63,694 nt of DNA, filler included, from Nemertoderma westbladi (GCA_032718475.1; 3 parts of 3 records of this genome joined end to end with filler, not necessarily neighbours in it), one strand, 5' to 3'; numbered from the whole stretch's first letter, positions 21,049-54,590 are shown. Numbers and translations: made by a program. The notes: generated by a model from the sequence alone, not told the origin.

Positions 21049-21050
21049 CT

Positions 21051-24446: not shown

Positions 24447-24619
24447 TGGTCTCCCTTCTGTGAATGAGGTCACCACCTGGACGTCATTGTCGACTTCACA
24501 AAGGTGTGCCAAGTGCCAAACGATAGTTTAAATAATATGAAACCAATCATTCACTCAAAAACACCAATAATAAATTATAAAAAAATTCCGTTCGGATTTC
24601 TATATTATGGCTGTATAAC

Positions 24620-26914
24620 TCTCTTTCAATACCCTAATGGAACCAAAGCACAACTGGATTACATCCTTATAAACAAAAAGTGGAGAAACAGCATGATCAA
24701 CTGCGAGGCATACAGCTCGTTCAACCTAATTGGTTCGGACCACAGAATAAATTGTGACTGCAGAGATCAGACTTAGTTTGAGAGCCAGCAAACCCAGGAC
24801 AAGCAAGCAAATCAACTATGACTGGGAGAAACTCAGAACTGACAATGCTGTAAAGGATGCTTACACAGTGGAAGTTCAAAACCGCTTTGAAGCACTTCAG
24901 TCAATGGATGAAGACCAGTCCACCGATTCAATGTATCAGAATATAATAACAGCCCACAAGGAATCAGCTAAGAGGCATATCCCCCAGAAACCCAAACGAA
25001 AACAGTATGTGCCATGGCAAAACTCTGAGGTTAGTTGTAAGAGAGAAGATCTTAAGATAGCCTACAAAGTTAAAACAGAACAACCAACAACCGAAAACAT
25101 TAACAAGGTTGAGAAAGCTAAGGACGATCTTAAATTGGCCTACAACATCGGCCAGGAAAAGTACATACAGGGTAAAATTGAAGCAATTACAACTGCTCAC
25201 ATACAGCAACAATCAAGACTTACCTGGCGAACTGTAAACGAGGTATCTGGTCGGAAAAGTTGTGCAAAGGGGACAAAGCCGATAGTCCTGAAGAACATGT
25301 TGGGAAGTGGAAAAATCACTTCAGCAACTTGCTTGGGCAGCCACCAAACATCGAGGTCAGCCCTACAAGGAAAATATATGACAATACACTACCTATAGAA
25401 ACAGGGGACTTCACACCTGCCGAACTCCAAAGAAGCATTAAAAGCATGTCCAATAATAAAGCGAGTGGATTGGATGAAATCCCAGCGGAGGTATGGAAAA
25501 CCGGAGTGCTAAACAGACCATTATTGATTGTTTGCAACCGGATGTTAAAGGGGAAAAGCCACCACCAATTTGGACTAAAGGTCAACTAAAGCCTCTCCCC
25601 AAGAAAGGAGACCTCGGCATACCAACAAACTATCGTGGGATCTGTCTGCTTGTGGTAGCTGCCAAAATATACAATAAAACGATTCTATATAGGATTAGGC
25701 CTCACATAGAGAAACTACTGCGTAAGAGCCAAAACGGATTTCGATCAAGTAGATCGACAATAGCTCAGATACTTGCATTACGGAGACTGATTGAAGGAAT
25801 TAAATAAAAAAACTCCCCGCAGTCATGAATTTTGTGGACTTCAAAAAGGCATTCGACTCCATCCATAGAGGTAAATTGCTTGAAATCCTAAGAGCTTATG
25901 GAATACCAGAAGTAATTGTTGCTGGCATTGGATTGTTATATTGTGACACAGAAGCGCAGGTACTCTCACCAGATGGTAAAACTGAGTTTTTCTCAATCCT
26001 GGCTGGCGTACTGCAAGGTGACACATTAGCACCATTACTATTTGTAATTGTGCTGGATTACGCAATGAGGACGGCCACAAAGGGTGAAGATGTGGGATTT
26101 ACACTTCAAGAACGCAGAAGTAGTGGATATCCGGCAACTACAGTCACAGACACCGACTTTGCGGATGACATCGCCCTGCTCTCTAATACCCTAGCAGATG
26201 CACAGCTTCTACTAAATAAAGTGGAGAGGGCTGCTAAGGAGGTTGGATTGCATATAAATGCCACCAAGACCGAATTCATGACCTTTAATGTTGATGGAAA
26301 CTTGACAACCATTGATAATAATCAACTAAGGAAGGTCGACGTACCTTCCAGTACCTTGGATCATGGATAGAGAGTAGCAAAAAGGACATAGAAGTTAGGA
26401 AAGCAAAGGCTTGGGTAGCTCTATCAAAAATGGATACCATCTGGAAATCAGATCTCTCTAGGCACCTGAAGACTAAGTTCTTTCGAGCCACAGTGGAAAG
26501 TGTATTTTTATGCGGGGGTGAGACCTGGACACTGACTAAATCACTTGAACAACGAATTGATGGTTGCTACACAAGACTACTAAGGGCAGCCCTAAACATC
26601 AGCTGGAGACAACACATGACAAACGCCGAGCTTTATGGTACAATACCACCTGTATCAACCACCCTCCGTGAACGCAGATTAAGATTCAGTGGGCACTGCT
26701 GGCGAAGTAAAGACGAGGTAATACCAGATCTACTTTTCTGGTAACCAACTCATGGAAAGCGTAGTCGTGGACGACCTGCCATAACATATATAGATCAACT
26801 TGAAAGGGATACTGAACTTGGGAGAAACGAAATTGCGACAACTATGGAGAATCGGGAAGCCTGGAAGGATCTCATTTCCACTGTCGGAGTTCGCTCGACC
26901 TAGTAGTAGTAGTA
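24620..26914 (+). mobile_element. RTE-like LINE family B (APE C-terminus plus RT, frameshifted)
   Basis: QLDYILINKKWRNS...GSDHR (APE end), LQGDTLAPLLF, FADD, RLRFSGHCWR; (TAG)n tail at about 26901-26914; several frameshifts and a stop. Confidence 0.93.
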
Positions 26915-29041: not shown

Positions 29042-30028
29042 TCAGACTCTACCACTTATGGATAAAACGCACTCAGTTATAAACAGTTTGCTGCAATCGT
29101 GACAATCGCAACGGTATATCGTTCGCTCGTTAACAACAGGAACGTGAGCGCGTGAACAATTCTTCTTGTTACCACAAGAGGGCTCAACAGAAATTCCAGC
29201 AAACATGTTCTCATCACCGATAAAGCTCACCAAGTCGCTGTAGAAATTTTTGGTGCAATGGTGGCACTTTGAGTTGCGAAAGTTTTCAATTGTGAGAGGT
29301 GAAATTCCAGCCTGAATATTTTTCTTGCAGCAGTTTTTGTCAGACCGGCAGCCGGAACTCTTGAATTCTGAAATAATGAATTCCATCTTTACTTCTTTTT
29401 CATTGTTGTTGTCACGGTCAAAGGCCTCACGGAATACGCTATCGTTGCCTTCATCGTGATCATCATCTTCATATATAACGTCCTCTTTTATGGAACATTC
29501 TGCCTTGACCGAATTACTCAATTTTGTTTCGATTCCTTCTGCAGCCTTGCTATCAAGAAAGAGTTTTCTGGAACTAGAGGAAGATGATGAACTAGAGGTT
29601 CTAGATGATGTTGAACTTAGATGTTTGGATTCCAAATTCGTTACTGAAGGAGCATAGGAATGTTTCCTATCTGTTGGGGGAGTTGCCATGTTAACGAATG
29701 TACGTGGTGAGGCGGCTAGTGTATCTGACTTCATTATTTCTTTCGGTTTGGATTTTGTTTCAACTCCACAATATGACAGGCTGGTTCGTCTCCATTGACG
29801 ACAGTACTCTTTCTGTTCTTTGGTAAGTTTTTTTACTCTTGTAGATGATTCTTTATCAAAGGTTTCCTTTTCCACAGCGATGGGTGTCGACTTGACTTTT
29901 CTCTCAATATAAAATTCTCTATCACTAAAGTTACTTTCATCAAGTTCGTCTCCAAATATCTTGTTACCTCCAACAATATAAAATTTTCTATCAGTAAACG
30001 GACTTTCGACCTGTTCTTCGCCATACAT
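29042..30028 (-). CDS. Uncharacterised 328-aa protein with Ser-rich/acidic middle and duplicated Cys-rich C-terminal module
   Basis: Uninterrupted ATG-to-stop ORF in non-repetitive sequence; local paralogue at 11780-12093; no family recognised. Confidence 0.7.
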   Translation of the reverse strand: MYGEEQVESPFTDRKFYIVGGNKIFGDELDESNFSDREFYIERKVKSTPIAVEKETFDKESSTRVKKLTKEQKEYCRQWRRTSLSYCGVETKSKPKEIMKSDTLAASPRTFVNMATPPTDRKHSYAPSVTNLESKHLSSTSSRTSSSSSSSSSRKLFLDSKAAEGIETKLSNSVKAECSIKEDVIYEDDDHDEGNDSVFREAFDRDNNNEKEVKMEFIISEFKSSGCRSDKNCCKKNIQAGISPLTIENFRNSKCHHCTKNFYSDLVSFIGDENMFAGISVEPSCGNKKNCSRAHVPVVNERTIYRCDCHDCSKLFITECVLSISGRV

Positions 30029-31476
30029 TTCGTTACAAGTCCATCAAGTTTTGGTAAAGATTATTTTACTGAAATGAATAATAAACAGGGAATTGATCAA
30101 TCATAATATCTCAATTGATAATGCCTAGAATTTCTGACAACATTTTGTTTCTAATAATTGGGGTGTTGATTCGCCTTGAATTTAATTACCAGGTTTCTAA
30201 AAATAACGCAGCTTGATATTGTTGATTAGTTTACCAATGTAAGGCCATCTCATTGGAATACTGTATATATAATTTTATTCAACAATTAAAATCCCCAATT
30301 ATTTTAAATACCCGCAGGTCACAAGATAACGAGAATCCCATTTACGACCCACCTAGCATTTACTTGCCAAACACTGTAGTAACGAATTACTACAGAGTTA
30401 TCGCCTGAACGGCACCGAATATAACAATTAAGCTGTTAATCTTTTGTTTATCGCATTTCAAGTATTTAATTAAGCATACTGTATCCTTGAATTTTACTTA
30501 TTGTTGAGAGGTTATACTGTTCCGACAAAGGTAAGTTTCTCACAGTAATTTAGATTTATAACCAGGGAACCAACCAATAGGGGTTCGTATAATTGTCAGA
30601 TAGTGGAGCACATTGACCGCAAGTGATAATTGTAATCTTCAGCGCCAATTGACCGACCGCAAGATGAATAAATTATCGTTTATTGTTTTAGTTAGAAAAC
30701 ACGCCCACTGTAACCTGCTCCTTTCCATTGATGTTTTATTCAAACCCACTAAACACACATTGGTGTTTGCGGTCATTGACTCATATTTATTCACCATCTT
30801 AAACATCAGAACAAACACGATGTACAATATATAATGCTTACCCACCAAATGATGCATTTTCAATTCTAAATATTTGAAAATGTATTTCAACTTTCATGGC
30901 TACGGTGTAATAAATATTCACATCTTAAATCACCACGCGAGATATGTAAACAATAACTATTCCTTTGACACGGGTCGTGGTTACGTTGTGCATACAATCC
31001 CGACAACCGTATAAACAATAACAATGTTTCAGTATTCCATTTATGGCCTTCAACCGGGGGGCACTGTAGCTGTGTAGGTAGCTGTAGCTGTAGGCCTAAT
31101 GAAATATATGAAGCAGAACATCTCGTCTTATAGTATATGAAGTAGAAACAAAATGGAACGCACGATATAAAATAAGTAATAAGAGATGATATATTTATTA
31201 TTATGCAACTCTCTCATCGTTTCGCGATGACATGTTACATGTAAACAACTTAACCGGATGTTATTTACATACAGTACATAATTAATCATTCATAAGTTTA
31301 GCAAGCACCAAGCACGCTGTACTAAAGGCAGTGAAATGACACATTTTCAACATATTGTCCGACCGATCAATTTATTCTTCTAAATTAAGTATGATATTGT
31401 TAAAAATTAAATAATTTATATTTATATTCTTCGAGACCATGAGATAGTTTGTCGAGATGGGATTGCGCCAATCTAC

Positions 31477-32361: not shown

Positions 32362-35300
32362 TGTTAAACTAGCGGGGGTCCCTGCCTAACCAATAAAGAC
32401 ACAAAGACTGCTCTACTGTTAAACAGGGGTAATCAGGAGCGTGCTATTACTAATGTAGGGCTGCTAAATACAAAACCGCTACTTACCGTTGGATGGCGCT
32501 AACCTGCCGTCCGCTAATATATTTTACTAATTTTCTACGGCTCCTGCTAATCGCTTGTTCCTTTCTCTACCGATCGCTCGATAGAGAGCTAACTGTTCGA
32601 ACATATGAGCCACGTGGGAATAACCAAAACAATAAACCCGAATCGGCTCCCTAAGCTTACTTAAGACGGTTGTGAGAGGCTTTACACTCCAGAGTATATT
32701 CTTATGGTCTAATCTTACTGTTAAAACGCGCTAATAACCGCGTCCTTTCTAATCGCAAATACTGGGGTTCCCTAACGGAATGTGTGAATGTGAGAATATT
32801 TAAATAATCAAAAATGGTACAGTGTCTTATTAGGGCTAATACCTACTAGGGGACTAAACTTGCCTTCGGCTGGCTTTAGGCTAGCAATTTACTAATGCGT
32901 TTGCGCACTGAATACTGCGATCTAACTTATTGCCCGCTAATTTCAAATAACCGCCCAGCGTGAATAGCTTACGGTACTCTAAATTATTACCTTAACAATT
33001 CTCCGCTATGCTGCATACAAATTCTTAATTTTACTAATTAATTACAGTCACAAATATGCAACAGCGTACTAATTACTAAGTGTTCCAGAATGCGTAATTC
33101 TAATTTATTACACAACGGGTTGCACTAGTAACAGCCTAAATACTGTATTATTTTCGACCTAATCAGTAATTATTTTTCGTAAACTAAGAAATAGAAATCA
33201 ATCAGAGGAAAAGAGCATCTATCTAAGCATTCGGGATTTATTAGGCATCACCAGCGAGCTGTCTCCACTTCACACCGCTAACTTTCCGACCGCAACGGTG
33301 ACCCCCCGCCAGTGTTGCTTGCCTTTGAATCCTCCGCACTCCCTTCGTCGCTAACCCCCCGATGCGCCCGCCACGCCTACCGGTACCTCAGCCCTCCATC
33401 TAATGAGTAGCTACCGTAACGGCGCATGCAATCACAAAGTCTGACAGTCTAAGAAAATCCCGTAGGATTATTGCATCGAAAGGAATTACATAGAACCATT
33501 AACTAAAGCGTAGAAATCATAGTTCCAATTGTAATTGACAGTAATCATTGGGATTGATTGAGAAACACACCAAGAAATCAGTAGAGATTACAAATTAGCG
33601 TATTATTACAAGAAATAATTGCAAAAGGCAGAAATACGCAAAATACAGAATAATTAGTCGATGAATTAACTGGATTACAAGCAAAATTACACAGCACATA
33701 CCGGAAACACCGCCAATTTATAGGTGATTCATGGAGGATGATGCAATCGTTCTCTCATTGACTCCCCAATCCGCGCTACCATTAGACCAATCTGGAAGCA
33801 GTTAGGCCAATAAGGAAGCCGGATTGTGAACCTATCGCTCCCCGAAATCACAAATTATTACCATATATGGTAATTTTGGCGATGCTTAATTTAGCAGTAC
33901 TAATAATATGATACATAGAAATTAATTTAGCGCAATTATAAAGAAAATTAAGACCAATACATAGTACTGAGCCGTATTGAGGCTAATAACAGCAAGCTTA
34001 TATCCAGGGTCCAACAGGAAACTTGCTACCCTGGAACTATTTACTTATATCCTATTACAAAATTACTTAGGTAGGACTACATACTATTCAAAATGGGTAA
34101 AGTCAAATATATGGGCGTTTTATTTTCCTTATCTAAATATTGTTGCGCGTTATTATGGCTTATCTAAATAATTATACTGCATAACGACTAATATATTATA
34201 CTGTACAATGGCTAATATATTTATTGTTGCCGTTATTCCCGACACCATGGGGGAAAACGCCGATGCTGGAGGCGGAACTTTTCAGACCACGGAATCCCGG
34301 CCAGTCACCGGATATTGGTAGTGGAGAAGGAATACGTTCTTAAATGCAAGATTGCGATTGAGGAAAAGTTTCATTGGTTGGATATACTCTTTAATGTAAC
34401 TTCCCTACAGTTGAACCTTGATTGAGAATAAGTTGGGCATCCCCAAACCAATATACACCAAATGTTCACAATAATATAACACGACAATATAAATCCCTAC
34501 AGTACATTATTTAAATTACCCACTGTTCGCTCAGATTTTAGCCTAACTAATGTTCCCCAATTTTCCCCTGGTCCTAGTCTCGGTACCGTAGTGTCGGTGT
34601 CGGTCGACCCTGTTGCGTGTCCGTCCCACCCTTTCTGAACCCCGAAGGGATCGGTCATCAGGAACCAGTACGGCTTGGCTAGGGGTCTGTCATGTCGGTG
34701 GACCCGTTTGCGTGTCCGTCCCACCCTTCCTGAACCCCGAAGGGATCGGTCATCAGGAACCAGTACGGCTTGGCTAGGGGTCCATCGGTTCATCGCAGGG
34801 ACCCAACCACCTAGGCTTTCCGAGTCCTTATTCAGGCTCGTAGTCACTTCGGCAGCCGAGAAGCTGCTCCGAACAGTCGGTAGGCCAGTAGAGTCCAGTC
34901 CTTTGTCTTTCGACCCCGTTGCGTGTCCGTCCCACCCTTCCCGAACCCCGAAGGGATCGGTCAGGAACCAGTACGGTTTGGCAAGGGGTCTGTCAGCCCG
35001 TCGTGAGCCCCAACGGTTGGTGGTTTTCCGAGTCCTTATTCAGTCTCATACTAACGCCGGTCGTGGAACCCACTTCAGGAAGGCAGTCCTCGTCAAACCC
35101 TTCCTCCGTTAGTCGGTTGACCCGTTCGCGTGTCCGTCCCACCCTTCCCAAACCCCGAAGGGATCGGTCAGGAACCAGTACGGCTTGGCTAGGGGTCTGT
35201 TGTCGGTTCCCGTCGCAAATCCCTGACACAAGCAGCAGACTTTCCGATGTCCTTTTCAGGCTCGTAATAACTGCTGTTGGCCAGGGACCGCTAAGGGCAG

Positions 35301-35685
35301 TCCTTGTCCTTTAGACCTAGTGAGTTACCAAATCCAGCTCTCCAGGCAGCAGGAAGTTGGCTAGGCCTAATAGTAATCAGGCAAACCTGAATACTGCTTA
35401 ACTTTTCCTCCCACCCCTGGCCCTTAAATACATGAAATGAGTCCCGTACCCCGTAAGTCGCCCCAATATTCGCCCATAAATCGCCCCCAGTCCATTGAAT
35501 GTGCCCAAATCCCATGTTCCCGCACCCAGTAGTGATATCAGAATATTCATTTTAAATAAATCCAAAAAATATTCAACTCGCGTTAGGAAAAGTTGAAATA
35601 CCGCGAACATTTATACTGTATAACGGCTAATATATTATACTGTATAACACGGACTAATGTAGGTACAGCGCCATATATCGTAACA
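32362..35685 (-). repeat. 3' LTR of BEL element 2 (interrupted by a solo LTR; lacks about 260 bp present at 51158-51420)
   Basis: Matches 49474-52331 up to about 34162. A 24-bp subrepeat continues on both sides of the nested insertion; ends GTAACA before the PPT. Confidence 0.8.
34225..35609. mobile_element. Nested solo LTR of a different family (1385 bp)
   Basis: TGTT...AACA termini and exact 5-bp TSD TTTAT (34220-34224 and 35610-35614); four internal ~85-bp GC-rich repeats. Confidence 0.85.
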
Positions 35686-36280
35686 CCGCTCCAAGGGAAA
35701 TCAAGCAATGTTTCCCTCCAATTGTAGAAGAATATAGGGCGATGTATACAATACAAAATAAATTCGCTTTCAAATAATCTAATTATCTTGGTACTATAAT
35801 AATTCTACTATTTACAAATATTGCCATAGATATTGCATAATGGTTTTGCATACAAATTAAATTTACAAAATATTATCTCTCTCAATGTTAACGATTATTA
35901 CATACAAATTAAATTTACAAAATATTGCTTTCTCTTTCGTTCTACATAATGATTACTACATACAAAATTAAATTTACAAAAATATTGCTTTCATATAAAA
36001 AAAACTTGCTATGGCAGGTGAAAGGAGTAAGCCAAACCCGCAGGTTTGTCTCCCCAATCACCTCCTTCGCCTCTCTCATAATATAAATTCAAATTGATAC
36101 GACTAGTATATATGAGTCCCGTCGGATATTTACAAAATGCTACAATATACATCAGAGCGACGATGATGTATATATCTAGAGTCTGTCGCTCCGTGATATG
36201 ATCGCATTACCGACCCGCTCCTGGGTTCTTTGGGCTCACTCCTCTTTTCCGCCCCCTCCCCAGATACACCAATCTTCCTC

Positions 36281-39200
36281 CTATCGATTCTGTTGATGTC
36301 GTCCATGAGGCGTCACTCCCCGGAATCGGCGACGATGTTCCCTGAGCCCCGACTGATTCCCAGCTAGTGCTTCTCCCTCGACCTCGTCCCAATTGTCGTG
36401 CTCCTGTAGTCGCTTCCGCCAACTCTTCCTTCTGAAATTGCACACGCGCTTTTTCCGACGCGCCTTGCGCTGCAATCGCTGTGCCTCTATAATTGAGTGA
36501 TAGTGGTCGTCCTTGACTTGACGCTTGTCTTGGACCTCTCCTCCTGGTTCTCGCCGCGAGCCTTGAGCTCCAGCGGTCGTCGCTGTGGGTGCTGCGGTTC
36601 GCTGTTCCTTGATCCGCTCGGCGGTCAATGACCCCACCGGTACGTGAGTTAATAGGAACTCGTTGTGGTATTGTATAGCCACCATCCTCCAATCTCCTCG
36701 CGCGCGCACCACCTTCATGGTTTCCGAAAATAGACCTTTTGTTATATGGTCGCAAATAGCAACAAAGTTCCAAGTATATTTGTTATCCATATTAAGTTGT
36801 CAAAAATATTCCCGAACAACGATAACTCCAGTGTTCTGCGGAAGATCTTGAGCGGTCAATATTAGCTCCTGATATTGCGGTAATGACTGTAGATACGGCT
36901 TATACGCAACGTGTGATGGGTCTACTGCCCAAAATCCGTATCCTGCCTTAAACGGCAACCAACGCATCTGCGCTTGGATGTGGTAATAGGCCACACCCTC
37001 CCACTTATCTAGCATCTCTCGAAGCAGGTTGGCGCTATGGTTTATGGAATCATCTCGCAGTTGGCATCTCGCGCTACGATGTCCTTTTACCCCACAATAT
37101 CCGCATTGAGAAATGAAGACGGTGCACGTATGAAACGAATGGTCGGTCTCATTACACCAATGGCAGACCTTATGCGCCGCCTCTACTACTGCGTCGCACG
37201 ATTTTTGATTGTGCCTTGTGCTGCCGCACAACTTGCACCTACGCTCTTGTGGAAACCAGGCCCTCTCATATATGAGGTCTCCAATCGGTTTCGCACTTCC
37301 TTCTTTCCCAATGTCTAATACGATGTCGTCCTCTCCGGTCAGAGGTTGTTGTCCGAGTGTTGATCCGGTCGGTCCATTGTGTCCGTTCGGAGTGTTGATC
37401 CGGAACAAAGTAAACATCCTCGCCCTTGTCCTCTATCTCCAATATTTCCTCCCGCGTTCGTTTCGGATATGTCTTCTCCACCGGAAGATCCACTCCGAAT
37501 ACCTCTACTAACGTCTCCGGCCAACCCTCTCTAACAGGTCTATCAGCTTCCAAAGTGGAAGAGAGTACCAAACCCGCGGGTTTGATTCCCAAACCTCTTC
37601 TCCAAGGCCTCTGGCATCGGATACTCCATCGACGGTCGGTCTCCCAAATCTCCGATGTTCTGTCGATATATTCCTTCGAATATCGCTAATCCTCTCCTAA
37701 CCATCGATGTATTCTCTAATGATTGGTTGAAGAACAGGGTTAAGAAACGCTTCATCACGTCGGATTGGATTCCCCCTTTCGAGCGAACGTATTGATCTCC
37801 TCCGAACACCAATGGATGATGCTTCAAAACTCATACAACGATATCCGCTAATAAACAAGTTACCGTGTTCGACTCAAGCACCAAATAATATTGCAACGAC
37901 GCACGGGGTGGCGCGCAAATGTTCCAATACACTAACGCTTGCCGCTTGAAGTGGGATTTGAACTCCGCTCCCGGTGGCGTGTTATATTCACAATACGCCT
38001 CCTCGTATTTCTTTTGCATCTTCAACTTGAAGTCCCAATTATACAACAAATGCGCTATGAAGCCCATACCAGTCTTGGCAGAGTTGGGATACTCCCTATA
38101 AATTCCAATATCCTGTGCCCATAGCAACAATAGCTTGGTGTCGACAAACGGTCTCGGCAATCTGTCCTCCAAATCAGTCATGGCGTTGAAGTCACTTTCC
38201 AAATCGCTCTGGACTCCCGATCCCATCTTGACGTAATCTTGGTTGAGAATCGCCTCTCTAAACTTCTTGGGTAGCATCCTGGTGTCGATACGCTCCGCTC
38301 CGTGCATACCTCCTCGCCTGCATACCTCCAAAATCTGTTCTCTGGGATCCTTCCCTTTTCGATACTGCATCGTTATTATGGGCTCCGGTCTCTCTCGGTC
38401 CGCCCTCACGCGCATAAACACATGAGTCACACCATCAGCCGCGCGAATTTGAATGCACTTGCTAGTTAAACATTCTTGATGGGACCCTCCTTCATTGTCG
38501 TAGAACATCACTCTCCAATCCTGTAGTGAATCCTCCGTCTTCCTCCACTGACGCTGAATCTCGTCGGATGGGGTCCACATGCGCTCGATAGCCTTGTGGT
38601 CATCATATCGGGTGTAAGAACCCTTTCTCCTCAGCCACGCCTGGTCTACCTCCTCGTCGTCTGGGAATGTAGCCACCTCGACCCATACCTTTATGTACTT
38701 ATCCAACCATCCAAACAACTTGCTCTCCTTCCCCGGAGCTCCAATCTTGTCTAGTGTGTCGTAATCCGTGATCTGCATCGGGACGTCACGCAAGAACTTT
38801 GCGCATAAAACTTCCCGTAGACAGTCGACGTTCCAATGATCCGACATCCTCACCATCGGCAAGAATCTAATCGCTTCTCGCGACTCCGGGTGATCTACCA
38901 ATATCGCAGGTTCATTACCGTCGGAATAATACACCGGTTGGGGTTGAGATACGGCCAATGGAACAAATCCGGTCACTCTCCTCGTCTCCTGATGTCTATC
39001 CGCGGTCTTATTATACTCTATGACTCGTTCTTCGAATAATTGTTTCGCCTTCGCCGCTCGCTCCTCCTGCCGCAACGCGTCTATGTCGTCCTGATGCTCA
39101 GGCGTGAGATTTCTCGCTCGGTGAGGCGAAGTAAACGTAGTCCAGGGACTCGAGAGCTCCAAACCCGCGGGGTTGGTACCCGAGTCCCGTGCCGCTTCGC

Positions 39201-39949
39201 GCCGCGCCTCTAGGTCCTTATAGGCTCGGTATAGCGAAATGGCCGCTGCCATCTCTATCAAACTGGGTGTTGAACAGGGTTTAATCTCCGTATACGGATC
39301 TAATGTCGTAACGGTTGGCGTAATGGGTCTCGGAGGTCGCTTTCCGCTAATGTCGATACTGATCATCGGGTTGCTCATTGGGTAACCTCCCTCGTTGTAT
39401 CTAAGGAACTGGTGAGCTTGACATCGCGTTAATATCGGTTCAGGATGTTGCTTGTTCAGTCGGTCGGGAATCGCCACGTCTTGTTTATTCATGCATTCAC
39501 CACATTTGTAGAACAACTTGTATACACTGAAGACCTTTGGCGTCTCTTGATCCTCGCCTCGAGTCCTCCGGTACAGATGCATTCCGTCGAACTGATCTCA
39601 GACTGCAGGCAGAGGTTCATCGTGTCGTAAATACATGTTCATATGGTACAGCCGCGCGATCTCCTCGTCCGGGTATGCACTAATGTCGCATACGTCTAAC
39701 GCAAAGTCATAGGGATAACGAGTGCGATACTCCTTCCGCAAAACTTCCATACGGTCTCCCAACGCCCTCATTCGTTCCCTCCTCAATTCTTTATCATACG
39801 TGGGTTTATACTTCCCATTCAATTCCATTACCGACCTCCCATGGTAGTAAACGTTCGAGTCTTTACACCCGGGTCGGGTCCCATGGTAGTTCCACCTCTT
39901 CTCTGGCAGTAAATCCTCTCCTCAGTTGCGCTCTAATTTCCTTCTCCAT
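36281..39949 (-). pseudogene. Extra ORF of BEL element 2: ~1,200-aa protein with DEDDy (WRN/EXD-like) 3'-5' exonuclease, three CCHC knuckles and a basic tail; disrupted
   Basis: ORF pieces 39828-39598, 39582-37831 and 37827-37543 are in one frame, separated by single TGA codons; 37417-36800 and 36790-36281 likewise; about 3 frameshifts. Motifs FYDNEG, CIQI, LPKKFREAILNQDYVKMGSGVQSD, FVDTKLL, GMGFIA, QYYLVLE; CKLC..H..C, CHWC..H..C, CGYC..H..C. Confidence 0.75.
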
Positions 39950-40679
39950 TATAACCGCGTATATACATATATATATCCCAATAGGTCCGTTACGTAACTA
40001 ATTACACTGTGTGTAAATCAGTTAAATGACGCTGAAGGACAGACCTCCTGAACCCCCCTCCCGCCTTCCAGCAGTTCAGGTTCGACTCTCTAGATCCCGT
40101 CTCATTCCTAACTATCCTCTAACCTATTCCCATGCATAGCGCAAAAACTTTGGAGATAAACTGGCCATGACCAACTCACTTTTTGATGCCCAAACTACTC
40201 CCATTACTCGTACAAAACTACAGTAGTTAGAAAGGACAATAGTCTCTATGCTCGAACATCTCACTTCACTGCAAACTACTGAGTGGGGCTTGTGTACGCC
40301 TCTGGTGCTACTAACCTTTAGCACCTTGGTTGTTGTACTGTTGGCACCAATCTGTGGAAGTTGCTAAACTCAATTTACACTCCTACATAATATAGCCATC
40401 ACCATGGTTTCTAAATGCTATTTTCCAGGCTTCATGAGTTTTCAAATTACTGTATATCTATAGACGAATTCTAAAACGCGTCTACACACAGCGTCTGGAA
40501 TTGTCTTGGGTTCACTTCTAATTTTTTTTTAAATTTTTAATTTTCCAAAAATTTTGAAAATAAAATTTTATTTTGATACCCACCAGACAAATTCTCACGC
40601 AAATCACCGCAATCCCGCTCCTATGCATTTCCTAGTATTTGCATACGAGGAATGCATACGAAGTGAGTTGCGTCCAACA

Positions 40680-43600
40680 CTAATTCCGGTTTGAGGCAGG
40701 AGACAAATTATAATCTCCTGTCTCGATGCGTGTCTCCTCTAATAACACGATATCTTGGACCGGTCGGTCCAAGGTGTGTAAACCATTAGTTTTACACTTC
40801 TTTGGGTGCGGACACTTGCACCTAATTTTCACAGTGACTGTGCGCACTATATTTTGCACGTCTGGGTGTATGTGCAAGATGACACCAGTTTCCCAATATT
40901 TTCTCTTGACAACGGGTTCGGTTATCAATACATAGTCTCCTCTTTGGAGGCTCCGAACCATTTTGTACCACTTCGATCTGGTGGATATGGTGGGAAGATA
41001 ATATTCCCGCCAATATTCCCAGAATATGTACGCGACAAATTGAGTTATTTTCCAGCTCTTACGACTGTATAGGTCGGCACTAATTGGTTCTGATGCCGGC
41101 ACAAGAAATGCTGGACTCTGCATTAGCAAATGATTCGGCGTTAATGCAACACCGTCTGGCAACATAGCTATCGGCCTCGAGTTTAGTGTATGCTCGATTT
41201 CGATGAAAGCTGTGACCAGCTCGTCGTCGGTAAGTTGTTTGTTTACAGGCAATGTCTTAGCAATAGCCTGCTTTATGGAGCGAACCAAACGCTCCCAACT
41301 TCCTCCTCTCCAAGGACTTTCTGGAGTGTTAAATCTCCATTCTACTCTTTGCGGCAAAAGTGCTGCAGAGATTTCTTTATTCTGCGCCGCCCTATGAGCC
41401 GTGTTCAACTCGCTATTCCCTCTGACAAAGTTTGTACCCTTGTCAGAGTAGAACGCCTTTACTAGTCCTCTCCTGGCCATAAATCTCTTTAAGGCCAGGA
41501 GCAGAGATTTGGTCGACATGTCTGCCATGCGCTCGATATGTATGGCTCTACTAGCCATGCATATCAGTAGCAGGCCCCATCGTTTGTGGGTCAGCCGTCC
41601 ACTCTTTGCCTCAATCGGACCAAAGCAGTCCACCCCTGTATTTGTAAAGGGTGCGTCATATGCCTGCACTCTCGCTCCCCGGAGTTCAGCCATCTCCTGT
41701 TCCAATACTCTGGCGTTCACTCTCTTGCAAACCAGACAGGCGTCGTACATAGTACCTACTGCCCTGCTTGGCTGCAATAGAATGAATCGCTGTCTCGCTG
41801 CCGACAAACAGTGTAACTTTCCCACATGATGCAACCTCTTATGTATATCCCATAGAATCGCTCTTTGCAATTCTATTGGGTAACTAGGGATTATCACTGG
41901 GAACCTAAACTGTGAGTTTATGTCGACAGTCTGGATTCTAGATCTATGACAAATCAAACCCTTATGGATTAATGGACTCCATTTTCTAAGGGGTTTATAG
42001 AGAACTGGTCGTTGAGCCGATAATAGATAGAATTCCTTTGGGAAGGCACACATTTGATAATGCTTAAAATGCTTTAATTCCACTTGATCAATCTCATCCT
42101 CTGTCAGAGGTTTTTCAATTTCTGAATTCGCTCACTATTAACGCTCATTTGTTCTCCTAAATGTTCCGAATGTTTTACACAAAGGTACGAAACATATCGG
42201 CTTAACCACGCAGTTCTTTTACAAATTGTCAGCCAAGAGGCAGACGAATTTAGTAATTTGTCATAAATACTGCATGGCTCTAATGCCAGCGACGGTTGTC
42301 CGCTAACTAATGGAAGTTTCGAATCCAAACCCGCAGGTTTGGAAACCAAAGGCTCCATTGTGTCGGTCGTTTTCTGTCCGTCACTTACCAACTGTGACCC
42401 TGATGTAGTCTGTAGGGGTGGTTTTATGTCATAACTTACCCTTCCTGACATAGTAGTCACGTAAGTCTGTAGGTCTGACAGGTCTCTGGGCCGCTCCAAT
42501 GACTCTTCAGGCCGCTCCAATGACTCTTCAGGCCGCTCCAATGACTTGAGTTTGGCTTTCGACTTTGACTTGGAGACTTTCTCCACTTTGACTTCTGCAT
42601 CTTCAGGCATCGGATTGGTCACTGTCTTCAGTCACTCTGGCCAATGTTCCTGTGTCCTCGTTACAAAATCAGGTCCATGCAACCAAAACTCCTGGGACTC
42701 TTCCTGACAGAATTCCGCCAGCATAGCACCTCTCGAAGTTATGTCGGCCGGGTTCAACACTCCCAGAAAATGTCTCCATTGTTCCTTCGTCGAAAAGTCG
42801 ACGATCTGAGTGCGTCTGTTGGCCACAAATGTATTTAGTGCAATATTGTCGGCTGCAATGTATACTAACACTAAGGATGCGTCCGTCCAATAGAATAAGG
42901 TCAATGTCGAGTCTAACTCCTCTATTATCTGCTTACTTACCTCGACTGAGACTACTGCCGCCTGTAACTTTGCACGAGGGACAGTCATGTATTTGACCAG
43001 CATTGTCTTTGATCTAGAAGTCACAAAGGCCGTCTCAAACTTGTCCTGACTTACCTCTCGGCGAAGGTAGGCTACCATACCAAAGCCGGTGTCACTTGCA
43101 TCACTAAATAAATGCAGTTCTAAATCAGCTGGAAATACCAGCTGGTTCGGAAAGTAGGAGCGGGGTACATCTATGTTTTTCAATAGATGCAACTTGGCTT
43201 CCCACTCTGTCCACTGCTTTGCATGTATAGGAGACATTGGTTCATCCCACTCTAAGTCGGACAACCAAATTTTCCTCATACACACTCGTGCCTGTAATAT
43301 TACCAGACTGATAAAGTTCATCGGGTCAAATAGTCTACTCAATGTCGAAAAGCAGATTCTCTTCGTCAAAACCTTGTCTGGACTACTGGGCTCAAACCTA
43401 ACTCTTACCTGGAACTTATCCGTGTTCGGATTCCAAGCGAGTCCCAGTACTCGCGCCATGGGGATGGGTTCTACACCCAACTCAATGTCTCTGCTCCCGC
43501 GATCTTTCACCGAGAACGACTCTAATAGGGCCTCCGAGTTAGTAGTGAACTTGGTCAGAGGAAATCCCCCTGTAGCCAAGCACTCCTGTAGGCCGTGAGC

Positions 43601-46600
43601 CACTTCTATGGCTTGTTCCGCTGTGTCCTTGGACACCAATCTGTCGTCCATATAGAAGTTTCTCAAGATGGACTCGATAACTTCTACTGCATACTTACCA
43701 ATCTGGGCCGTTGCCATTTTCTTTAGAACAAACAGCGTGCCATTTGGACTATCGCGGGCACCAAATATCCTGACATACATTTGGTATGTAACCACTGGGC
43801 CGGATAGGTCTTCATTCTCAAACCAGAGAAATCGAAGACTATCCTGGTCTGCCTTACAGGCTCTTACCTGGTGGAACATCGCCTCGATGTCACAAGTAAA
43901 CGCGAATCGCCGCTGTCTAAAGCGCAACAGTATTCCTAACAAATAATTATTCAGGTTGGGACTGTCCATCAACTCTGAATTCAGGGACATGCCTCTATAG
44001 ACTGCCGTGCAGTCGTTGACTACTCGGACTTTGTTTGGTTTGTCAGGGTGAGTCACATAGTGGTGTGGGAGGTAATAAGTCTGGTCCATCACTAAGTCCG
44101 GGTCCTCTACCTTCCCAGCAAATCCCTTGGCGAAATAGTTGTTGATCTGGGCGCAATACTTCTCCCTAATGTCCGGATTCCTTAACAACCGAGCCCTTAC
44201 TCCGTTTAATCTTTTCAAGGCTAAGTTGTAGTTGTTCTCCAACTTAGGTGGTTGTCGACGCCACAACATTCCAACTTCAAAATGTCCAGTCGGTAGTAGA
44301 CGTATGGTATCTTCCATCATCTCCAGCGACCGTTTCTCATCAGTAGACATGGCTAGGTCATATCCACCGGGTTCCATTGCGTCCCTATCCAGCCATTCGA
44401 CGGTTCTGGCTCCTGTCTCGAGGTCCTGGCGTATCAATTCCTTCTGTAGCTCCTCCTCACTGTATTGGAAAATGTCTAGGTCTCGATATTTAGCCACTTG
44501 ACCCTCCACTATATCTGTATAAGTCAAAACGTTACTCAGATAAGTAGCGTGGGCCGCTGAACCAGACCCACGGGTCTGATAACAGTAGTCCTCGGGTTCA
44601 CTATCTGTCCGGTCGTTGTGGAGTGGTTCCGACAACCTAACATTATCGGGAATCAACTCCTCGTCCGACTCGCTAAAGTCACTATAGTGGTCAATACAGG
44701 TTCTCCTAAACTCGTCTATGTCTGGTGGTTCTACTGACGGTGGTTGAGTTATAGGCTGTAATTCGTCGTATCTGTCTATTGGCTTGTCGCCACCTGTAAA
44801 CTCATAAGACATGGGTACTCGTGTATACCAACCTAGTATAGTCCTATGGGCATGTGGTCCGTTGACATGCGGCTCAGCTGGTCTCGTTTCCCATATTTGG
44901 TGTGCGATCAGCTGTTCTGCACCAATTAACATAGATACATTCCTATAACCTACCTGGTGTTTCGGTACTCTGAGCTTGTCAAAATACTCCTGTGCTATGG
45001 GACTCATCGGCGGCACCTTACCTAACTGCCTGCCGAACCCTTTCATAGCTAGACTCTTAAATCACAAGCTTAAAGCAGCGCTCTCCGTTCTTGTCGAGTG
45101 TGCTGGTCTCTCGGGAGTAGGGAGTCTAGTTCTACCGAAATTCTGTGTCCCTTGAGGTCCCCTACCCCGTGCATGGACTTTAACTCTATTTGGATATCCT
45201 CAGCGTCCTGGAAGCTGGAAACGGCTCTCGCCACTTCCTCGTCGATATAAGATAATGTGGACGCAGTGTCCAACATCACATATATTCTCTTTGATCACTT
45301 ATCTCCAGTAAGTTTCACCGGAATCACGCTGAATATTTCCGACGAGGCCGATGATAAATACGTCCGCGCGCTGGTCCATGAACTATCCGCGGTGAAACCT
45401 TGGCAGGTCACTTCTCTCACGCTCGCCTCGCCATCCTCGTCCGACGAACCTGGTTGATAACCATCGTCCTGAATGCCGTTGTACGTATTTCTTGTTATCG
45501 ATACGGGATCTCTGCTCCCCTTCCTTTGAGGATTTCTCTGTAAGTAACGGTCCGTTGGGGTATGGAAATCCGCATGTAGCAACTTGTGATATAATCTGCC
45601 GCATTCCTGCATCCGTCCTTGCTGTTCGGGCACTGCCGCCGTACATGACCTGGCGCAAGACATGCCCATCAGGTGTCCAACGTCCGCACTTGAACTCTTC
45701 TCTGTTCCGAAGTTAATTCTTTGAACCGTCTGCAACTGTCTAACTTATGTTTATCAGATCTTACCTACTTTAGTAAGCACAATTGGCAACCTACAAATCC
45801 ATCCGGCAACTCCTGTTGCCTTAACTTAGGTCTATCTGACCGCTCACCTGACCATACTCGCGAGTCTGATCTAAAGGCAGGGGTACTCGAATTATATCTG
45901 TCTACTGAGTTAAAAGTCACAGTGGTTCTGTCATCGTCAAAACTTACCATTGACTTACCGGTAACAGGTTTAGACTCCCTCATATTCTCCTCTGAGAAGT
46001 TTGATTTCATCTCTGCTACTGCGTCTGTGGCTATCATGTCATGGATGTGTTGAAGTGTCAATACTTTACCTTGACCCTCTAACTTATTCTCTAATTTGCG
46101 CCATTTCTGTCGGTAACGCATGTTTAAACGTCTTATTATGCTCTTCAAAACTTCGGCGTGATCACCATGATGAGGTAGATTCACTGTCCTCAAGATGTCT
46201 AATGCGTTCGAAATAGCGTTCGCTAAGTTCAACAGCTCTAACGGAGTTGTAATCCTTCCGCCCTTACCCAAGTCTTCCACTATTGACTGTGCCATCTTGG
46301 TTTTATTCCCGAAGATGTCGCTAAGCATCTTCATTGCCAACTCAAATGCTCTTTCATTGCCGACGAAGTTGTCAGCAATGGCTCTAGGTTCTCGATGGAG
46401 CATCTGAAGCAGATAGTTGAACTTCTCGTTGGGAGTAAAGGTGCTGTTGGTCAGCTGTTCGTCGACATAGGTTTTGAATGTCCTCCAATGTTTATGGTTA
46501 CCCATAAACTTCTGGGGTTGTTGCGTCGGCAGTCCTTGCCTAGCGGAAAACTTACCTATGTCTCTAAGGGTTGCGTCGTTCCGGGTTAACAAATGGTTTA

Positions 46601-48292
46601 GTTCTGCAGGGTTATTAAGTCTGGTCCTTTCCCGGTGGTTCAAACTTACCTGCTCCGCATCGGTCCTTCTTTCCTTATAGTTTCGGTTCTGACGTCTCAT
46701 GTCTTCCTCTTCATCGCTTGAGTCTGTGTCAGTCCTTAACACTCGCGTTGGTTTGCATGCCGAGGCCCAGACCCAGGCTTCTTGTATAAATCTTTCTGCC
46801 GAATTCTCGAAGTTGGGATTATGAATCGTAGGGACAGGCGCTCTTACCTGAGGTCTATGTGGTATAGTTGCCTCTGATATGCATACTTGTTGACTAGGTT
46901 GGACTTTATCTAACTCAGGCCTGCTAGGATTAGAATTACTTCTTACCTGGGCTGCTTCCTTTAACTGTAGGTTACTAAGCATGTCCGTTATAGGTTGGAT
47001 GTGCGGCGATATAGCTTGCGCTAAACTAGCACTTAACTCATCCCTCGTAATAAATTCCTGGCTAGGGTTCTGTTGTATAGTCGGCTCTATCTGAGTAATC
47101 CACTGTCTCTCATATGATCCCTCTCCTGGTTTAACCCGGAAGTTCTCCATCGAACTGGGTCGGCGCTCTGTCCGCGTATTCCAAACCCGCGGGTTCGGTT
47201 CGCGCAATACTCGGCCTGTCGGAGTTTCTCCTCTAAACTCTTCGTTCGCTCGTTCAGTATGTAGTAGTGCGGTGTCCTGATGACGTGGATCCTGCGCGAT
47301 GGGTGAAGCACTAATACCAACTGGCGTGCGATATTTAGAGAACGGTTTAGCGATCCGAGTACTCGTAATAGCTGGACCGGGTATAGGAATTCTGGTCGTC
47401 GTCGACTCGCGTATAGTCGGAGTTCTCGCTTCCTGTTCGGCTTTCTGCAGTGCGAACAGTTCTCGCAACTCGGTACCTACACTCGTCCCACATTCTTTGA
47501 TTATTCGCATCCCCTTCTCGGCGATTTCATTCGCCTTCCTAGTCCGTTCTTCGCTCTCTAAATTTAATCTCGCAATTTCCAACTGCGCCAGTTTACGTTC
47601 TTCTTCTTCCCTCACTCGTCTCGCTGCGCTCTCTTCTTCCACACGCGCCTTCTCTTCATACAACGCCCGTCGCTCCTTCTCAATCTCGAGTTTGCGTTCC
47701 TTCTGTTCGCGTTCAAGTTGGAGTTCACGTTCCTTGCGCTCGCGTTCCGCTTGCTCATGCTTACTTATTTCCTCCAACTCTCGCAACTTTGCGTCTAACT
47801 TCCGTGTGTGCTCCCGTTCTCACTCAGCTTCCTTCCGTGCTTCCGATGCACGCAAAACTTCCGCCTGTTGTTCATCCAGTCGGCATCTTCTCTCCTCCGC
47901 CGAGTTGTGAGAAACAAGGGATCTAGCACATATAACTTTCCCTCGCGCGTGACTAACCTGGGAATCGCCACTATCTCTAGATGCATCGTCGGGTGGAGTC
48001 AACATCCGGCACTCGCTTCTGCTACACTACCCTCCCTATCACTCACCTCTGGCCGGGCTGCTATACAATCCTTCCTTACATTAGTGGTAGGGGATCCTAA
48101 TACTATTACTTGAGGTCCTTGTTCTTCCTCACTAGTTACTGTCTCGTCCTCCTGTTCACTTACGTCAGCGTCGCTCGCTGCGTCGTCATAGTCGGCATTG
48201 TCGTTAACAGTAATATTAACGCTATCGTCAGTCGGCGGTCCAGCCGCCGTCTCATAGCTGTCCTCTAGTGCCTCCTTCTCTGAGACACTCAT
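40680..48292 (-). pseudogene. BEL/Pao gag-pro-pol polyprotein (disrupted)
   Basis: Gag DUF1759-like FMGNHKHWRTF...EKFNYL; protease MLDTAST; RT YYLPHH, DIEAMFHQV, FGARDSP, FYMDD; RNase H LHLFSDAS, WTDA, NPAD; integrase HHCC, DCFGP, SDKGTNF, GGSWERLV; several stops and frameshifts. Confidence 0.95.
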
Positions 48293-49473
48293 AGTCTAAA
48301 TAATATTTTGTCTTCCGGCTAAAATCTCACAAAATTCGAGATATATATATAATTTAATCGAAAATACGATTAAATTATTTGTCAAATAATTGGTTGGTCC
48401 CAAAATGTCAAATAAATTCGCAATACAATATTGTGAATTTAATAGGATATGCTTATAGCAAATACCAGTACAATATTTAAACAAAAATATTATTCTATAG
48501 CTATTATATAGCATTTAAATACCGGTATGACACAAAATAATTTCTGAATCTAATTCAAAATATTCAAAAATGAACTTGCCACCCAAATATTTCTAATTTT
48601 ACATATATAGCTCTAATCAACACAATTTTAATTTCAAATATTATATGTATCCACTAGCGCGTGGCTACACCTTCGGGTTGCGACTCTCTCTCTCTCTCTC
48701 TCTCTAACTTGAGCGATTCAAAAAAACCATGGCCGGCTAAACCTAACTATCCTAACTAATAAATTGAGTTCAGCTTCGCAGTTAAACAACCGGTAATTTT
48801 TTACTGCTTCCACAAACACAATGGTGCCAACAGAACAACTAACCTTGTTTGCTGTGAGATTCCACGTCCGCGTCCAAAGTTTCAGGCTCTTCGCTGATTG
48901 CAAACCGAACCCGCAGACCCACACGAACCCCAAACGCAGTAGCTCCATCTTGCCATGTATCTTCAGATGGTATAAAACAACTAAGCGGTTATCTAACATA
49001 CTGGTACAAAACTCTAGATTTTATTATAAAATAATTTTGACCAAAACTGAATTTTCACAAACCTAGCTAAAATTTTCAAAAACTTACTAATTACAGCTTG
49101 CCCTAACGGCCTAATGAACTGCTGTATTTGCGATTAGTAAATGCACTACCGTACATTCACTATTACGCAGTACAGTAAGTAAAACAGTACACTAACCTAA
49201 CAGCCTAACGAATACTGTATGTGGTACAGCAAAACAAATATCTTTTCTACCGTACACAGTAACAGCAATCAGCCCAATACACTACTGTACTACTGTATTG
49301 CGACTAGTGAATACAGTAATCTAACCTAACAGCCTAATGAATACACTATGTCTTACTGTACGCAGTACAGCAAAACCAAATATCGTACTTCACTGTACGC
49401 AGTACAGTGATCCTACTTAACAGCCTAAAAAATATACTCTTTACTGTTGCAAGCAACAGCAAACGTACTTCAC

Positions 49474-52331
49474 TGTTAAACTAGCGGGTCCCTGCCTAAC
49501 CAATAAAGACACAAAGACTGCTCTACTGTTAAACAGGGGTAATCAGGAGCGTGCTATTACTAATGTAGGGCTGCTAAATACAAAACCGCTACTTACCGTT
49601 GGATGGCGCTAACCTGCCGTCCTTTAATATATTTTACTAATTTTCTACGGCTCCTGCTAATCGCTTGTTCCTTTCTCTTAGGGCTCGATTGGAGCTCCGG
49701 CCTCTGACTCCGGCTCCGGCCATTTTGGCACCTCCGGCTCCTGCTCCGGCTCTGGTAAAAATATTGCCGGAGTTAATTTTTTAATAAAGTATTATATTTC
49801 GTGCATATTCTACAGTTCTAATCTGAACAATTATTTACACAAGTACTGTACTGTAGTACAGCTTCAATATCAAGCATAATACTGCAGTATTTACTTAAAG
49901 TCAATGACTGACTGACTGTACTGCAGTACCGGTACTGGCTGACTGGTACTGGCCAGCTGGCTGACTAGCAGACTATTACAGGATAGGCCCTACTGTAAAA
50001 AATTGTAAATGCTATGATTGTACACTGTACCACTGCAGCCATTTACTGCTGTCATGCCAGCATACTGTACTGCAGTACTGGTACATGTACGGTACCGGTA
50101 GGCTACCTACAGTAAACAGTACACACCTCTACCACTCTACCACAGTTAATGAGTTAGGCTGTTAGGTACTGTAGGTAATTTTTAGCCGTCAGCGTCAGGC
50201 CGTCTGTCCGTGATAAATTAATTACATAAATTTTAAATTGAAAATTCGTAAATCTATAAATTATGAAATTAATTAGACCTACAGTATGATTGATTATGAG
50301 CGATTGGCGAACGATAACCCTACTTTATTTTTTTTAAATAAATAATTAAATTTTTAAAATTTTTGAAAAACTCCGGCTCCTGCTCCGGCTCCAGCCAAAT
50401 TGTCCAACTCCGGCTCCTGCTCCGGCTCCGGCTCCGGCTCCGGCCAAATCCCAACTCCGATCAAGTCCTACTTTCTCTACCAATCGCTCAATAGAGAGCT
50501 AACTGTTCGAACATATGAGCCACGCGGGAATAACCAAAACAATAAACCCGAATCGGCTCCCTAAGCTTACTTAAGACGAGTGTGAGAGGCTTTACACTCC
50601 AGAGTATATTCTTATGGTCTAATCTTACTGTTAAAACGCGCTAATAACTGCGTCCTTTCTAATCGCAAATACTGGGGTTCCCTAATGGAATGTGTGAATG
50701 TGAGAATATTTAAATAATCAAAAAGGGTACAGTGTCTTATTAGGGCTAATACCTACTATGGGACTAAACTTGCCTTCGGCTGGCTTTAGGCCAGCAATTT
50801 ACTAATGCGTTTGCACACTGAATACTGCGATCTAACTTATTGACCGCTAATTTCAAATAACCGCCCAGCGTGAATAGCTTACGGTACTCTAAATTATTAC
50901 CTTAACTATTCTCCGCTATGCTGCGTACAAATTCTTAATTTTACTAATTAATTACAGTCACAAATATGCAACAGCGTACTAATTACTAAGTGTTCCAGAA
51001 TGCGTAATTCTAATTTATTACACAACGGGTTGCACTAGTAACACCCTAAATACTGTATTATTTTCGACCTAATCAGTAATTATTTTTCGTAAACTAAGAA
51101 ATAGAATTCAATCAGAGGAAAAGAGCGCCTATCTAAGCATTCGTGATTTATTAGGCACACTTTAGTAACACAACAATCAATGTAACAATCAATAGTTTAT
51201 ACTTACCAATTATAGTTCCTAATGTACAATTCACAATCAGCAGAGCAATTCACAGTTCGCAATACAGTGCAGTTTGTCATTCGCAATGTTCGCAACTCGC
51301 AATGTGAAGTACGAAGGCCTCACCCGGGTACATCTAAGGCTTCCTAACTAACCCGATTCCTGCCCCCCTAATACTATAAAATAGAGACAAAATCTGGATT
51401 ATCAGCCCCCTAATTACTGTACCAGCGAGCTGTCTCCACTTCACACCGCTAACTTTCCGACCGCAACGGTGACCCCCCACCAGCGTTGCTTGCCTTTGAA
51501 TCCTCCACACTCCCTTCGTAGCTAACCCCCCGATGCGCCCGCCGCGCCTACCGGTACCTCTGCCCTCCATCTAATGAGTAGCTACCGTAACGGCGCATGC
51601 AATCACAAAGTCTGACAGTCTAAGAAAATCCCGTAGGATTATTGCATCGAAAGGAATTACATAGAACCATTTACTAAAGGGTAGAAATCATAGTTCCAAT
51701 TGTAATTGACAGTAATCATTGGGATTGATTGAGAAACACACCAAGAAATTAGTAGAGATTACAAATTAGCGAATTATTACAAGAAAAAATTGCAAAAGGC
51801 AGAAATACTCAAAATACAGAATAATTAGTCGATGAATTAACTGGATTACAAGCAAAATTACACAGCACATACCGGAAACACCGCCAATTTATAGGTGATT
51901 CATGGAGGATGATGCAATCGTTCTCTCATTGGCTCCCCAATCCGCGCTACCATTAGACCAACCTGGAAGCAGTTAGGCCAATAAGGAAGCCGGATTGTGA
52001 ACCTATCGCTCCCCGAAATCACAAGTTATCACCATATATGGTAATTTTGGCGATGCTTAATTTAGCGGTACTAATAATATGATACATAGAAATTAATTTA
52101 GCGCAATTATAAAGAAAATTAAGACCAATACATAGCTAGCCCTATTGAGGCTAATAACAGCAAGCTTATATCCAGGGTCCAACAGGAAACTTGCTACCCT
52201 GGAACTATTTACTTTTATCCTATTACAAAATTCCTGAGGTAGGACTACATACTATACAAAATGGGTAAAGTCAAATATATGGGCGTTTTATTTTCCTTAT
52301 CTAAATATCGTTGCGCGTTATTATGGCTTAT
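49474..52331 (-). repeat. 5' LTR of BEL element 2 (outer end truncated, hAT MITE inserted)
   Basis: High-identity direct repeat of 32362-34162. Confidence 0.9.
49679..50470. mobile_element. hAT-type MITE inserted in the LTR
   Basis: TIRs TAGGGCTCGATTGGAG / CTCCGATCAAGTCCTA, exact 8-bp TSD CTTTCTCT, CTCCGG subterminal repeats; absent from the other LTR. Confidence 0.9.
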
Positions 52332-53724: not shown

Positions 53725-54590
53725 ATATAAGGATCAGCATGCTGCATTGCAGCTGCATTTGTAAGAATGCTCTGCCGGTTTGTTTACAAAATTGCGCCGC
53801 CACAACTCCGTATCACCCATGACATTTACTAGATCATCCACATCTTCAAGGCCAGTGTCCTTTAAGATGCGTCTCAAGAAAGTCATGAGCTGTCCACCAT
53901 GCTTATTCACAATATGAGGCTGCCAAAGCACAAAATTATGCACTGGCTGGTCCTCACGGCGAAAGCAATGTCCTGCAAAGCGGAGGCGATTTTATTCTAC
54001 GTGTATTCTATACATGTTACATAGTGTCTGATTGAAAATGTAAACATTGTTCTTGACACAATGAACCCGGCGTAGCATTCTTGTGAATGTGCCATCAAGA
54101 GATTTGGTGTCCTCACCAGTTAGATCCTGGCATGGAATCCCATAGAGGAATACTGGAACTTGTGCTGCTCTAAATAATCTGACGTTAATTTTCAAATTAT
54201 TGCTATGACATTTAGAAATCCTGGAAAGCCTATTCAAGGGTGGCCGGGTCTTTCCCTTACGTATTCGAAGGTCCTCACCTGACTTCCGGATCCATGATCC
54301 CAGGTAACATAAGTTATCAACATGCTCTAGCATACCATCCTTTGAGCTTAAGCTGATCTGATCAGAGACTTTGTGGGCACTTTCAAAGTTTACTGTCAAA
54401 TTTTTGGTCTTTTTTTTTTATGCGGTTTAATATAATTCTATTCCATAGCTTTGCAGCAATGGATATCAATGAGATTTCCCGAAAAGAACCATACAGTGTG
54501 TTAAGTTGCCCTTCTTAAGAACTGCCAGTAACTTATTTGTTTTAATTTCTTGTGAAACTCTTGTTTTTCTGTACATGTCTACTAGGATGG
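53725..54590 (-). mobile_element. Diverged, internally deleted RTE-like family A copy
   Basis: ORFs 53734-53943 and 53992-54399 align with 22586-23281; 54440-54590 matches about 21820-21960. Confidence 0.9.

Follow-up and report, generated by a model that had tools for sequence, protein, structure and literature searches.

An element that we assign by its domain order to the BEL/Pao retrotransposons carries, between its integrase and its 3′ long terminal repeat (LTR), in the place where an env gene might be expected, a third gene, ORF3, whose core very probably has the fold of a DEDDy 3′-5′ exonuclease. The core of this reading frame is under purifying selection, and copies of it are present in hundreds of contigs and in a second organism. 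The element lies in a window of 63,694 nucleotides of Nemertoderma westbladi DNA (GCA_032718475.1), by which we mean the whole stretch analysed, made of three parts joined end to end with filler. Feature coordinates are given in Table 1.

Structure of the BEL/Pao element

The element lies on the minus strand, between about 52331 and 32362 of the window, and its Pfam domains occur in the order DUF1759 (gag), a weak RVT_1, Peptidase_A17, Integrase_H2C2, and DUF5641. This Pao-type order of gag, pol, and integrase domains, scored on the pieces other than the protease, supports membership in BEL/Pao (Belpaoviridae), together with the LTR pair and the purine run. The LTRs are 97 to 98% alike in three blocks (44 mismatches over a total of about 1,800 bp), and each holds a later insert; contigs from other copies run across both insert sites. 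The unit minus these inserts measures about 18 kb, and each LTR is close to 2 kb. Both the family assignment and the size had been put forward in an earlier note on this DNA, and both were recovered here. Because the corresponding part of the 5′ LTR is missing, we infer the start of the 3′ LTR at 35684.

Both gag and pol are broken in the window copy, and no TGG-type primer-binding site, as would be expected for a tRNA-Arg/Gly primer, was found in it within 90 bases past the 5′ LTR end at 49474. The stretch from 49474 to 48900 is rich in TACTGTAC-like repeats and is variable among copies in the contigs. Integrase-based scans for related elements gave none. The insert at 34225-35609 in the 3′ LTR contains four internal repeats of about 90 to 100 bp, is deeply covered in the sequencing runs, and resembles a solo LTR from a different family.

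Table 1. Features of the element, in the order of its sense strand (window positions)
Feature	Position	Strand	Evidence or remark
5′ LTR	49474..52331	-	outer end missing; insert of about 790 bp at 49679-50470; matches 3′ LTR
gag, main open piece (BEL-type, broken)	45768..47819	-	Pfam DUF1759, E 2e-9
pol fragments spanning RT and RNase H (broken)	42107..45061	-	Peptidase_A17, E 2e-34; weak RVT_1, E 0.07
Integrase, stop at 40680	40680..42131	-	Integrase_H2C2, E 4e-5; DUF5641, E 6e-17
ORF3, about 1,200 codons	36281..39949	-	3 TGA codons and 3 frame changes; covered by contigs of 4/4 runs
ORF3 N-terminal half	38521..39949	-	CxxC...CxxH at 39504-39412
Likely DEDDy 3′-5′ exonuclease domain	37834..38520	-	ExoI D/E 38499-38491; ExoII D near 38205; ExoIII-like YYLVLE 37890-37873
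Three CX2CX4HX4C zinc knuckles	37237-37196, 37165-37124, 37105-37064	-	motif; weak Pfam zf-CCHC, E 0.12-0.85
ORF3 C-terminal part and Arg/Lys-rich tail	36281..37063	-	sequence; no significant Pfam match
PPT-like short purine run adjoining 3′ LTR	35685..35691	-	sequence
3′ LTR	32362..35684	-	split by TG...CA insert at 34225-35609 (about 1,385 bp), flanked by ATAAA

Reading frame and architecture of ORF3

ORF3 lies on the sense strand of the element and begins about 730 bp past the integrase stop. The minus-strand frame 39921-37546 comprises 792 codons with only two stops, both TGA (39598 and 37831), while base shuffles of the same stretch gave a mean of 42 stops and a minimum of 23 in 2,000 trials. 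A second frame, 37432-36284, comprises 383 codons with a single TGA at 36800, where shuffles gave a mean of 19 and a minimum of 6 (2,000 trials). A codon model trained on the gag/pol ORFs of the window traced a path that changes frame three times, near 39850-39920, near 37600, and at 37350-37400. The frames and the model agree with the three TGA codons and about three frameshifts given in the earlier note, and the pieces would together form one protein, perhaps starting at ATG 39949. One contig from a second organism, organism B, covers 37187-37982 and joins the ExoIII-like motif to the first knuckle. It shows two length differences; since these equal the frame changes there, they support the nuclease and the knuckles as parts of one protein. 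Directly before ATG 39949, positions 39950-39985 hold a strong start context and an AT run resembling a TATA box, and this stretch could be an internal promoter for ORF3.

The short motifs of the frame were found where the earlier note placed them: CGEC (39504) and CQAH (39423) in the N-terminal half, followed by FYDNEG (38505-38488), CIQI (38457), LPKKF (38274), KMGSGVQSD (38229-38203), FVDT (38148), GMGFIA (38070), and YYLVLE (37890-37873). The knuckles, previously described with variable spacing, are all plain CX2CX4HX4C, a pattern that occurs only once elsewhere in the six frames of the window. The N-terminal stretch 39597-38521 has no Pfam match at E≤10. Hydropathy over 19 residues peaks at 1.7, at the ExoIII-like helix, and reaches at most 0.73 in the other pieces of ORF3. 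The scan showed no clear membrane anchor, the tail is basic, and no env family matched in Pfam, in agreement with the earlier view that the product is not env-like.

Spread through the family and purifying selection

Three DNA runs of organism A, from two samples and two studies and possibly including the source of the window itself, cover 30/30 bins of 34000-52400. For organism B, one run covers 28 of those 30 bins, ORF3 included. A 471-bp piece of the nuclease core was recovered in 447, 280, and 205 contigs of three runs from two studies, at likenesses from below 90% to above 99%, and it showed no length change at the 5% level except one joint in a single contig. Since hundreds of contigs and a second organism cover ORF3, it is a gene of the family and not a one-off insert.

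Within the nuclease core (38155-38476), 26 of the 32 differences listed are synonymous, compared with 33.5% expected for transitions (p 4e-8), and 25 of the 32 fall at third codon positions. Among differences that vary between copies, 13/14 are synonymous. These counts apply to the nuclease-core stretch, with differences scored singly and three pairs sharing a codon. No listed difference alters ExoII, and ExoI lies just outside the span in which differences were listed. The nuclease core of ORF3 is under purifying selection, and this synonymous bias, together with contig coverage in both organisms, rules out a one-off insertion.

No contig bridges integrase and ORF3, but the two are probably linked in other copies. 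In summed contig depth, which is no measure of copy number, ORF3 lies below pol in two runs, X1 and X3, and the depths of the two overlap in X2; subfamilies without ORF3 may exist.

Likeness of the ORF3 core to DEDDy exonucleases

We consider it very probable that the ORF3 core has a DEDDy fold, and we lean slightly towards predicting that the exonuclease is active in intact copies. The earlier note had called the protein a WRN/EXD-like exonuclease; three approaches favour that claim, and standard database searches give it no backing. Among ESM Atlas neighbours of two overlapping queries, 24/30 and 27/30 carry PF01612, with scores of 0.91 (recognition 2629), to be read against shuffled proteins that attain 0.9 in 4 to 10 of 100 cases; shared-feature counts were 153 to 166, short of the 170 that true family members typically show. 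Against a WRN/EXD2-like profile built from 120 bacterial proteins, for which WRN is the nearest solved structure (E 2e-13), the ORF3 domain ranked 5th of 2,002 when set among shuffles (P about 0.002), with ExoII in register. HH-align to the same profile gave a probability as low as 9.9%, and when 846 six-frame tiles of the window were ranked, the domain came 3rd to 4th at E 2.7 and does not stand out. No signal was obtained in the ORF3 domain with a second profile, built from 30 bacterial domains of the RNase D, NrnC, and Pol I types. Because that profile is silent and the WRN-like one is not, the WRN/EXD branch is hinted at, and these weak but concordant tests support a domain nearer to WRN/EXD2 than to RNase D or Pol I.

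In an ordered nine-block test, devised after the motifs had been seen, ORF3 scored 97, a value reached by 0/500 shuffles (mean 61, maximum 92; z 4.2). The 33 other protein tiles of the window scored at most 78, E. coli RNase D scored 97, and 30 true DEDDy domains ranged from 53 to 130, so that ORF3 falls within their range. In MAFFT alignments, FYDNE falls in the ExoI columns and K-x-G is in register. The residues VMFYDNE occupy the invariant ExoI columns if the query includes the 40 residues upstream, while a shorter query was misaligned. At ExoII, the K and G are invariant and an Asp stands 8 residues past the K, with aligners taking a second Asp 4 residues further on. To be aligned as DEDDy, the domain must accommodate about 40 inserted residues past the third strand. 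ExoIII had been described as having Glu in place of Asp: YYLVLE does have the Glu, but the block test places ExoIII near 38004 instead, and neither candidate has the usual Asp.

Structure prediction from the single sequence, which the earlier note had suggested as a check, was uninformative: the AlphaFold model had a pLDDT of 33, and fold searches with it gave a best Z of 4.8 and a best Foldseek E of 0.9, with no match. Poor as it is, this model shows strands and then helices in DEDD order. An alignment-guided model (pLDDT 53) matched EXD2 at Z 5.8 (rmsd 5.5, 111 residues aligned), but this result is circular, and we do not count it as evidence because WRN-like rows shaped the model. In Pfam, PF01612 was not matched even at E≤10, and the knuckles matched zf-CCHC weakly. 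No DEDD chain matching ORF3 was returned by PDB sequence searches, and phmmer against 1.84 billion representative proteins gave no match. No relative was found in word-index protein searches, PHROGs, or exact look-up, by tblastn of phage and plasmid sequences (best E 0.2), or in metagenome, viral, or prokaryote contigs. The best PDB sequence match, rotavirus VP8* over 60 residues at E 0.004, was dismissed as chance.

Other features of the window

Several features outside the element were noted. A second BEL-type gag-protease ORF (DUF1759) lies at 12873-15944 on the minus strand, with no pol ORF seen; it is beside and between direct repeats at 12270-12950 and 18158-18838 that are 99.9% alike, and 12270-18838 is perhaps a young non-autonomous element. 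Long inverted repeats of about 1 kb and 83% identity at 19724-21800 are typical of foldback or MITE-like DNA, and fragments of non-LTR elements (RVT_1, DUF6451) lie in both orientations at 21800-26900 and 53700-58300. An intronless ORF of 589 codons at 60096-61865 encodes an AMP-binding enzyme (Pfam E 7e-58) with about 25 to 28% identity to three prokaryotic loci. Another intronless ORF, of 318 codons at 9162-10118, has no match in Pfam, and its C-terminal part resembles a coiled coil. Two related ORFs without known family, at 29042-30043 and 11497-12108, share 76% DNA identity over 200 bp, and the former has a Cys-rich C-terminal part.

Possible roles of ORF3

Our best explanation, which we regard as possible and put forward tentatively, is that ORF3 trims small silencing RNAs of the host and so eases the spread of the element. 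ORF3 would be a WRN/EXD-type 3′-5′ exonuclease whose three knuckles hold RNA for trimming, and it would be translated separately, from a subgenomic RNA; both the knuckle-assisted trimming and the separate product are proposed on the model of Trypanosoma RNase D, mut-7, and Nibbler. RNA is the likelier substrate since the zinc fingers of the trypanosome enzyme raise RNA binding and trimming. That the target is host silencing RNA is a guess, favoured over the alternatives because ORF3 stands apart from pol and such a gene is absent from most BEL elements. A point against it is that mature piRNAs have 2′-O-methyl ends, which resist such enzymes. It is somewhat unlikely that the same enzyme acts instead on the nucleic acids of the element itself during its cycle, as a trimmer of 3′ ends on genomic RNA, primer, or cDNA. 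A role of this kind has been proposed for rotifer ORF3 and for the DEDDy domains of Dada transposons, nucleocapsid-like CCHC knuckles could bind the element's own RNA, and the window copy has no TGG-type primer site past its 5′ LTR; however, the absent site may reflect decay of this copy, and most BEL elements replicate without an exonuclease gene (PMC8742986).

The absence of the usual ExoIII Asp at either candidate site would suit a catalytically dead DEDD fold serving as an RNA-binding adaptor or decoy, like EXD1, Maelstrom, and Egalitarian, and inactive DEDD derivatives in piRNA biogenesis are noted by Rodriguez 2017 (PMC5408684). We consider such a protein unlikely, given that the ExoI Asp/Glu and the ExoII Asp are present and that ExoII is unaltered in the listed differences between copies. 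WRN-type domains act on DNA, and the unit is roughly double the size of 4 to 10 kb given by the ICTV, both of which would fit a proofreading partner of the reverse transcriptase for an 18-kb genome. Yet ORF3 is separate and not fused to pol, and planarian Burro elements exceed 30 kb while the extra domains named for them in the available text of PMC6431247 are others, making proofreading highly improbable. The blank standard searches, and a rotavirus match showing what chance yields for ORF3, would be expected if the protein were a conserved, knuckle-bearing accessory factor that resembles an exonuclease by chance. This is improbable, as Atlas features, the WRN-like profile, and the block test agree on one family and one register, and even the poor single-sequence model places its strands and helices in DEDD order.

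Trimming of host silencing RNAs leads to a broader and rather unlikely scenario, in which this BEL/Pao lineage independently captured an animal small-RNA trimming enzyme of the mut-7/Nibbler/EXD type, fused it to a triple knuckle, and employs it as a suppressor of piRNA silencing. If true, such a capture would account for the high copy number of the family, and repeated DEDDy capture by unrelated retroelements would represent convergent counter-defence. It is an open question whether animal retrotransposons encode their own proteins against piRNA silencing, and the DEDDy cargo of rotifer elements was reported with no function. A second LTR superfamily, a different DEDDy subtype, purifying selection, and many copies together suggest repeated capture for a reason, and the ORF3 family may offer a tractable system for testing both the enzyme and its target.

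Comparison with known systems

Like members of the Belpaoviridae, the element is bounded by TG...CA LTRs that enclose Pao-type domains in the order gag, pol, integrase. It differs from them in its length of about 18 kb, far above the known BEL range of about 4 to 10 kb, in LTRs near 2 kb where 0.2 to 1.2 kb is described (ICTV profile, PMC8742986), and in a third gene that is not env-like. The main text of a survey of BEL elements (PMC3118150) does not contain the word "exonuclease." In the open literature, we found no DEDDy ORF3 in BEL/Pao and no WRN-like form with three knuckles; Repbase, GyDB, Dfam, subscription journals, and supplements lay outside this search.

Among cellular enzymes, the WRN exonuclease, EXD2, and mut-7/Nibbler (PF01612) have the ExoI/ExoII order and spacing seen in ORF3. 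Compared with bacterial WRN-like members, ORF3 has about 20% identity and two large inserts. The RNase D of Trypanosoma brucei (TbRND, PDB 7c42) resembles ORF3 in having a DEDDy domain followed by a zinc-finger cluster, and its fingers raise RNA binding and cleavage in an enzyme that trims guide RNAs (PMC7797062). It differs in that it is cellular, belongs to the RNase D branch, and has four fingers, and PDB sequence searches showed no sequence likeness between the two. Dada DNA transposons (PMC3706591) are likewise mobile elements with a captured DEDDy exonuclease, but there the domain is set inside the DNA transposase and keeps all four acidic residues.

The closest parallel is in bdelloid rotifers, where a DEDDy ORF3 is carried by Juno, Vesta, and Athena/Terminon elements (Rodriguez, Kenefick, Arkhipova 2017, PMC5408684). 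That paper raises both 3′-end processing and a mut-7-like role as proposals, and this cargo is repeated in three reviews (PMC6431247, PMC5718144, PMC6338049). Rotifer ORF3 and the BEL ORF3 have in common that they are not env, follow pol, and have, in the BEL case probably, a DEDDy domain with an altered acidic motif. The rotifer protein is described there as RNase D-like, with the motif DEED, in low-copy families, and "BEL" does not occur in the paper. By these descriptions, the BEL ORF3 is distinguished by its BEL/Pao carrier, a domain nearer to WRN/EXD2, a length of 1,200 residues, three knuckles, and purifying selection. The novelty that had been suspected for this cargo therefore holds in part: LTR retrotransposons with a DEDDy ORF3 were already described in 2017, so the kind of cargo is known, whereas the BEL/Pao carrier, the WRN-like subtype, and the triple-knuckle architecture appear to be new.
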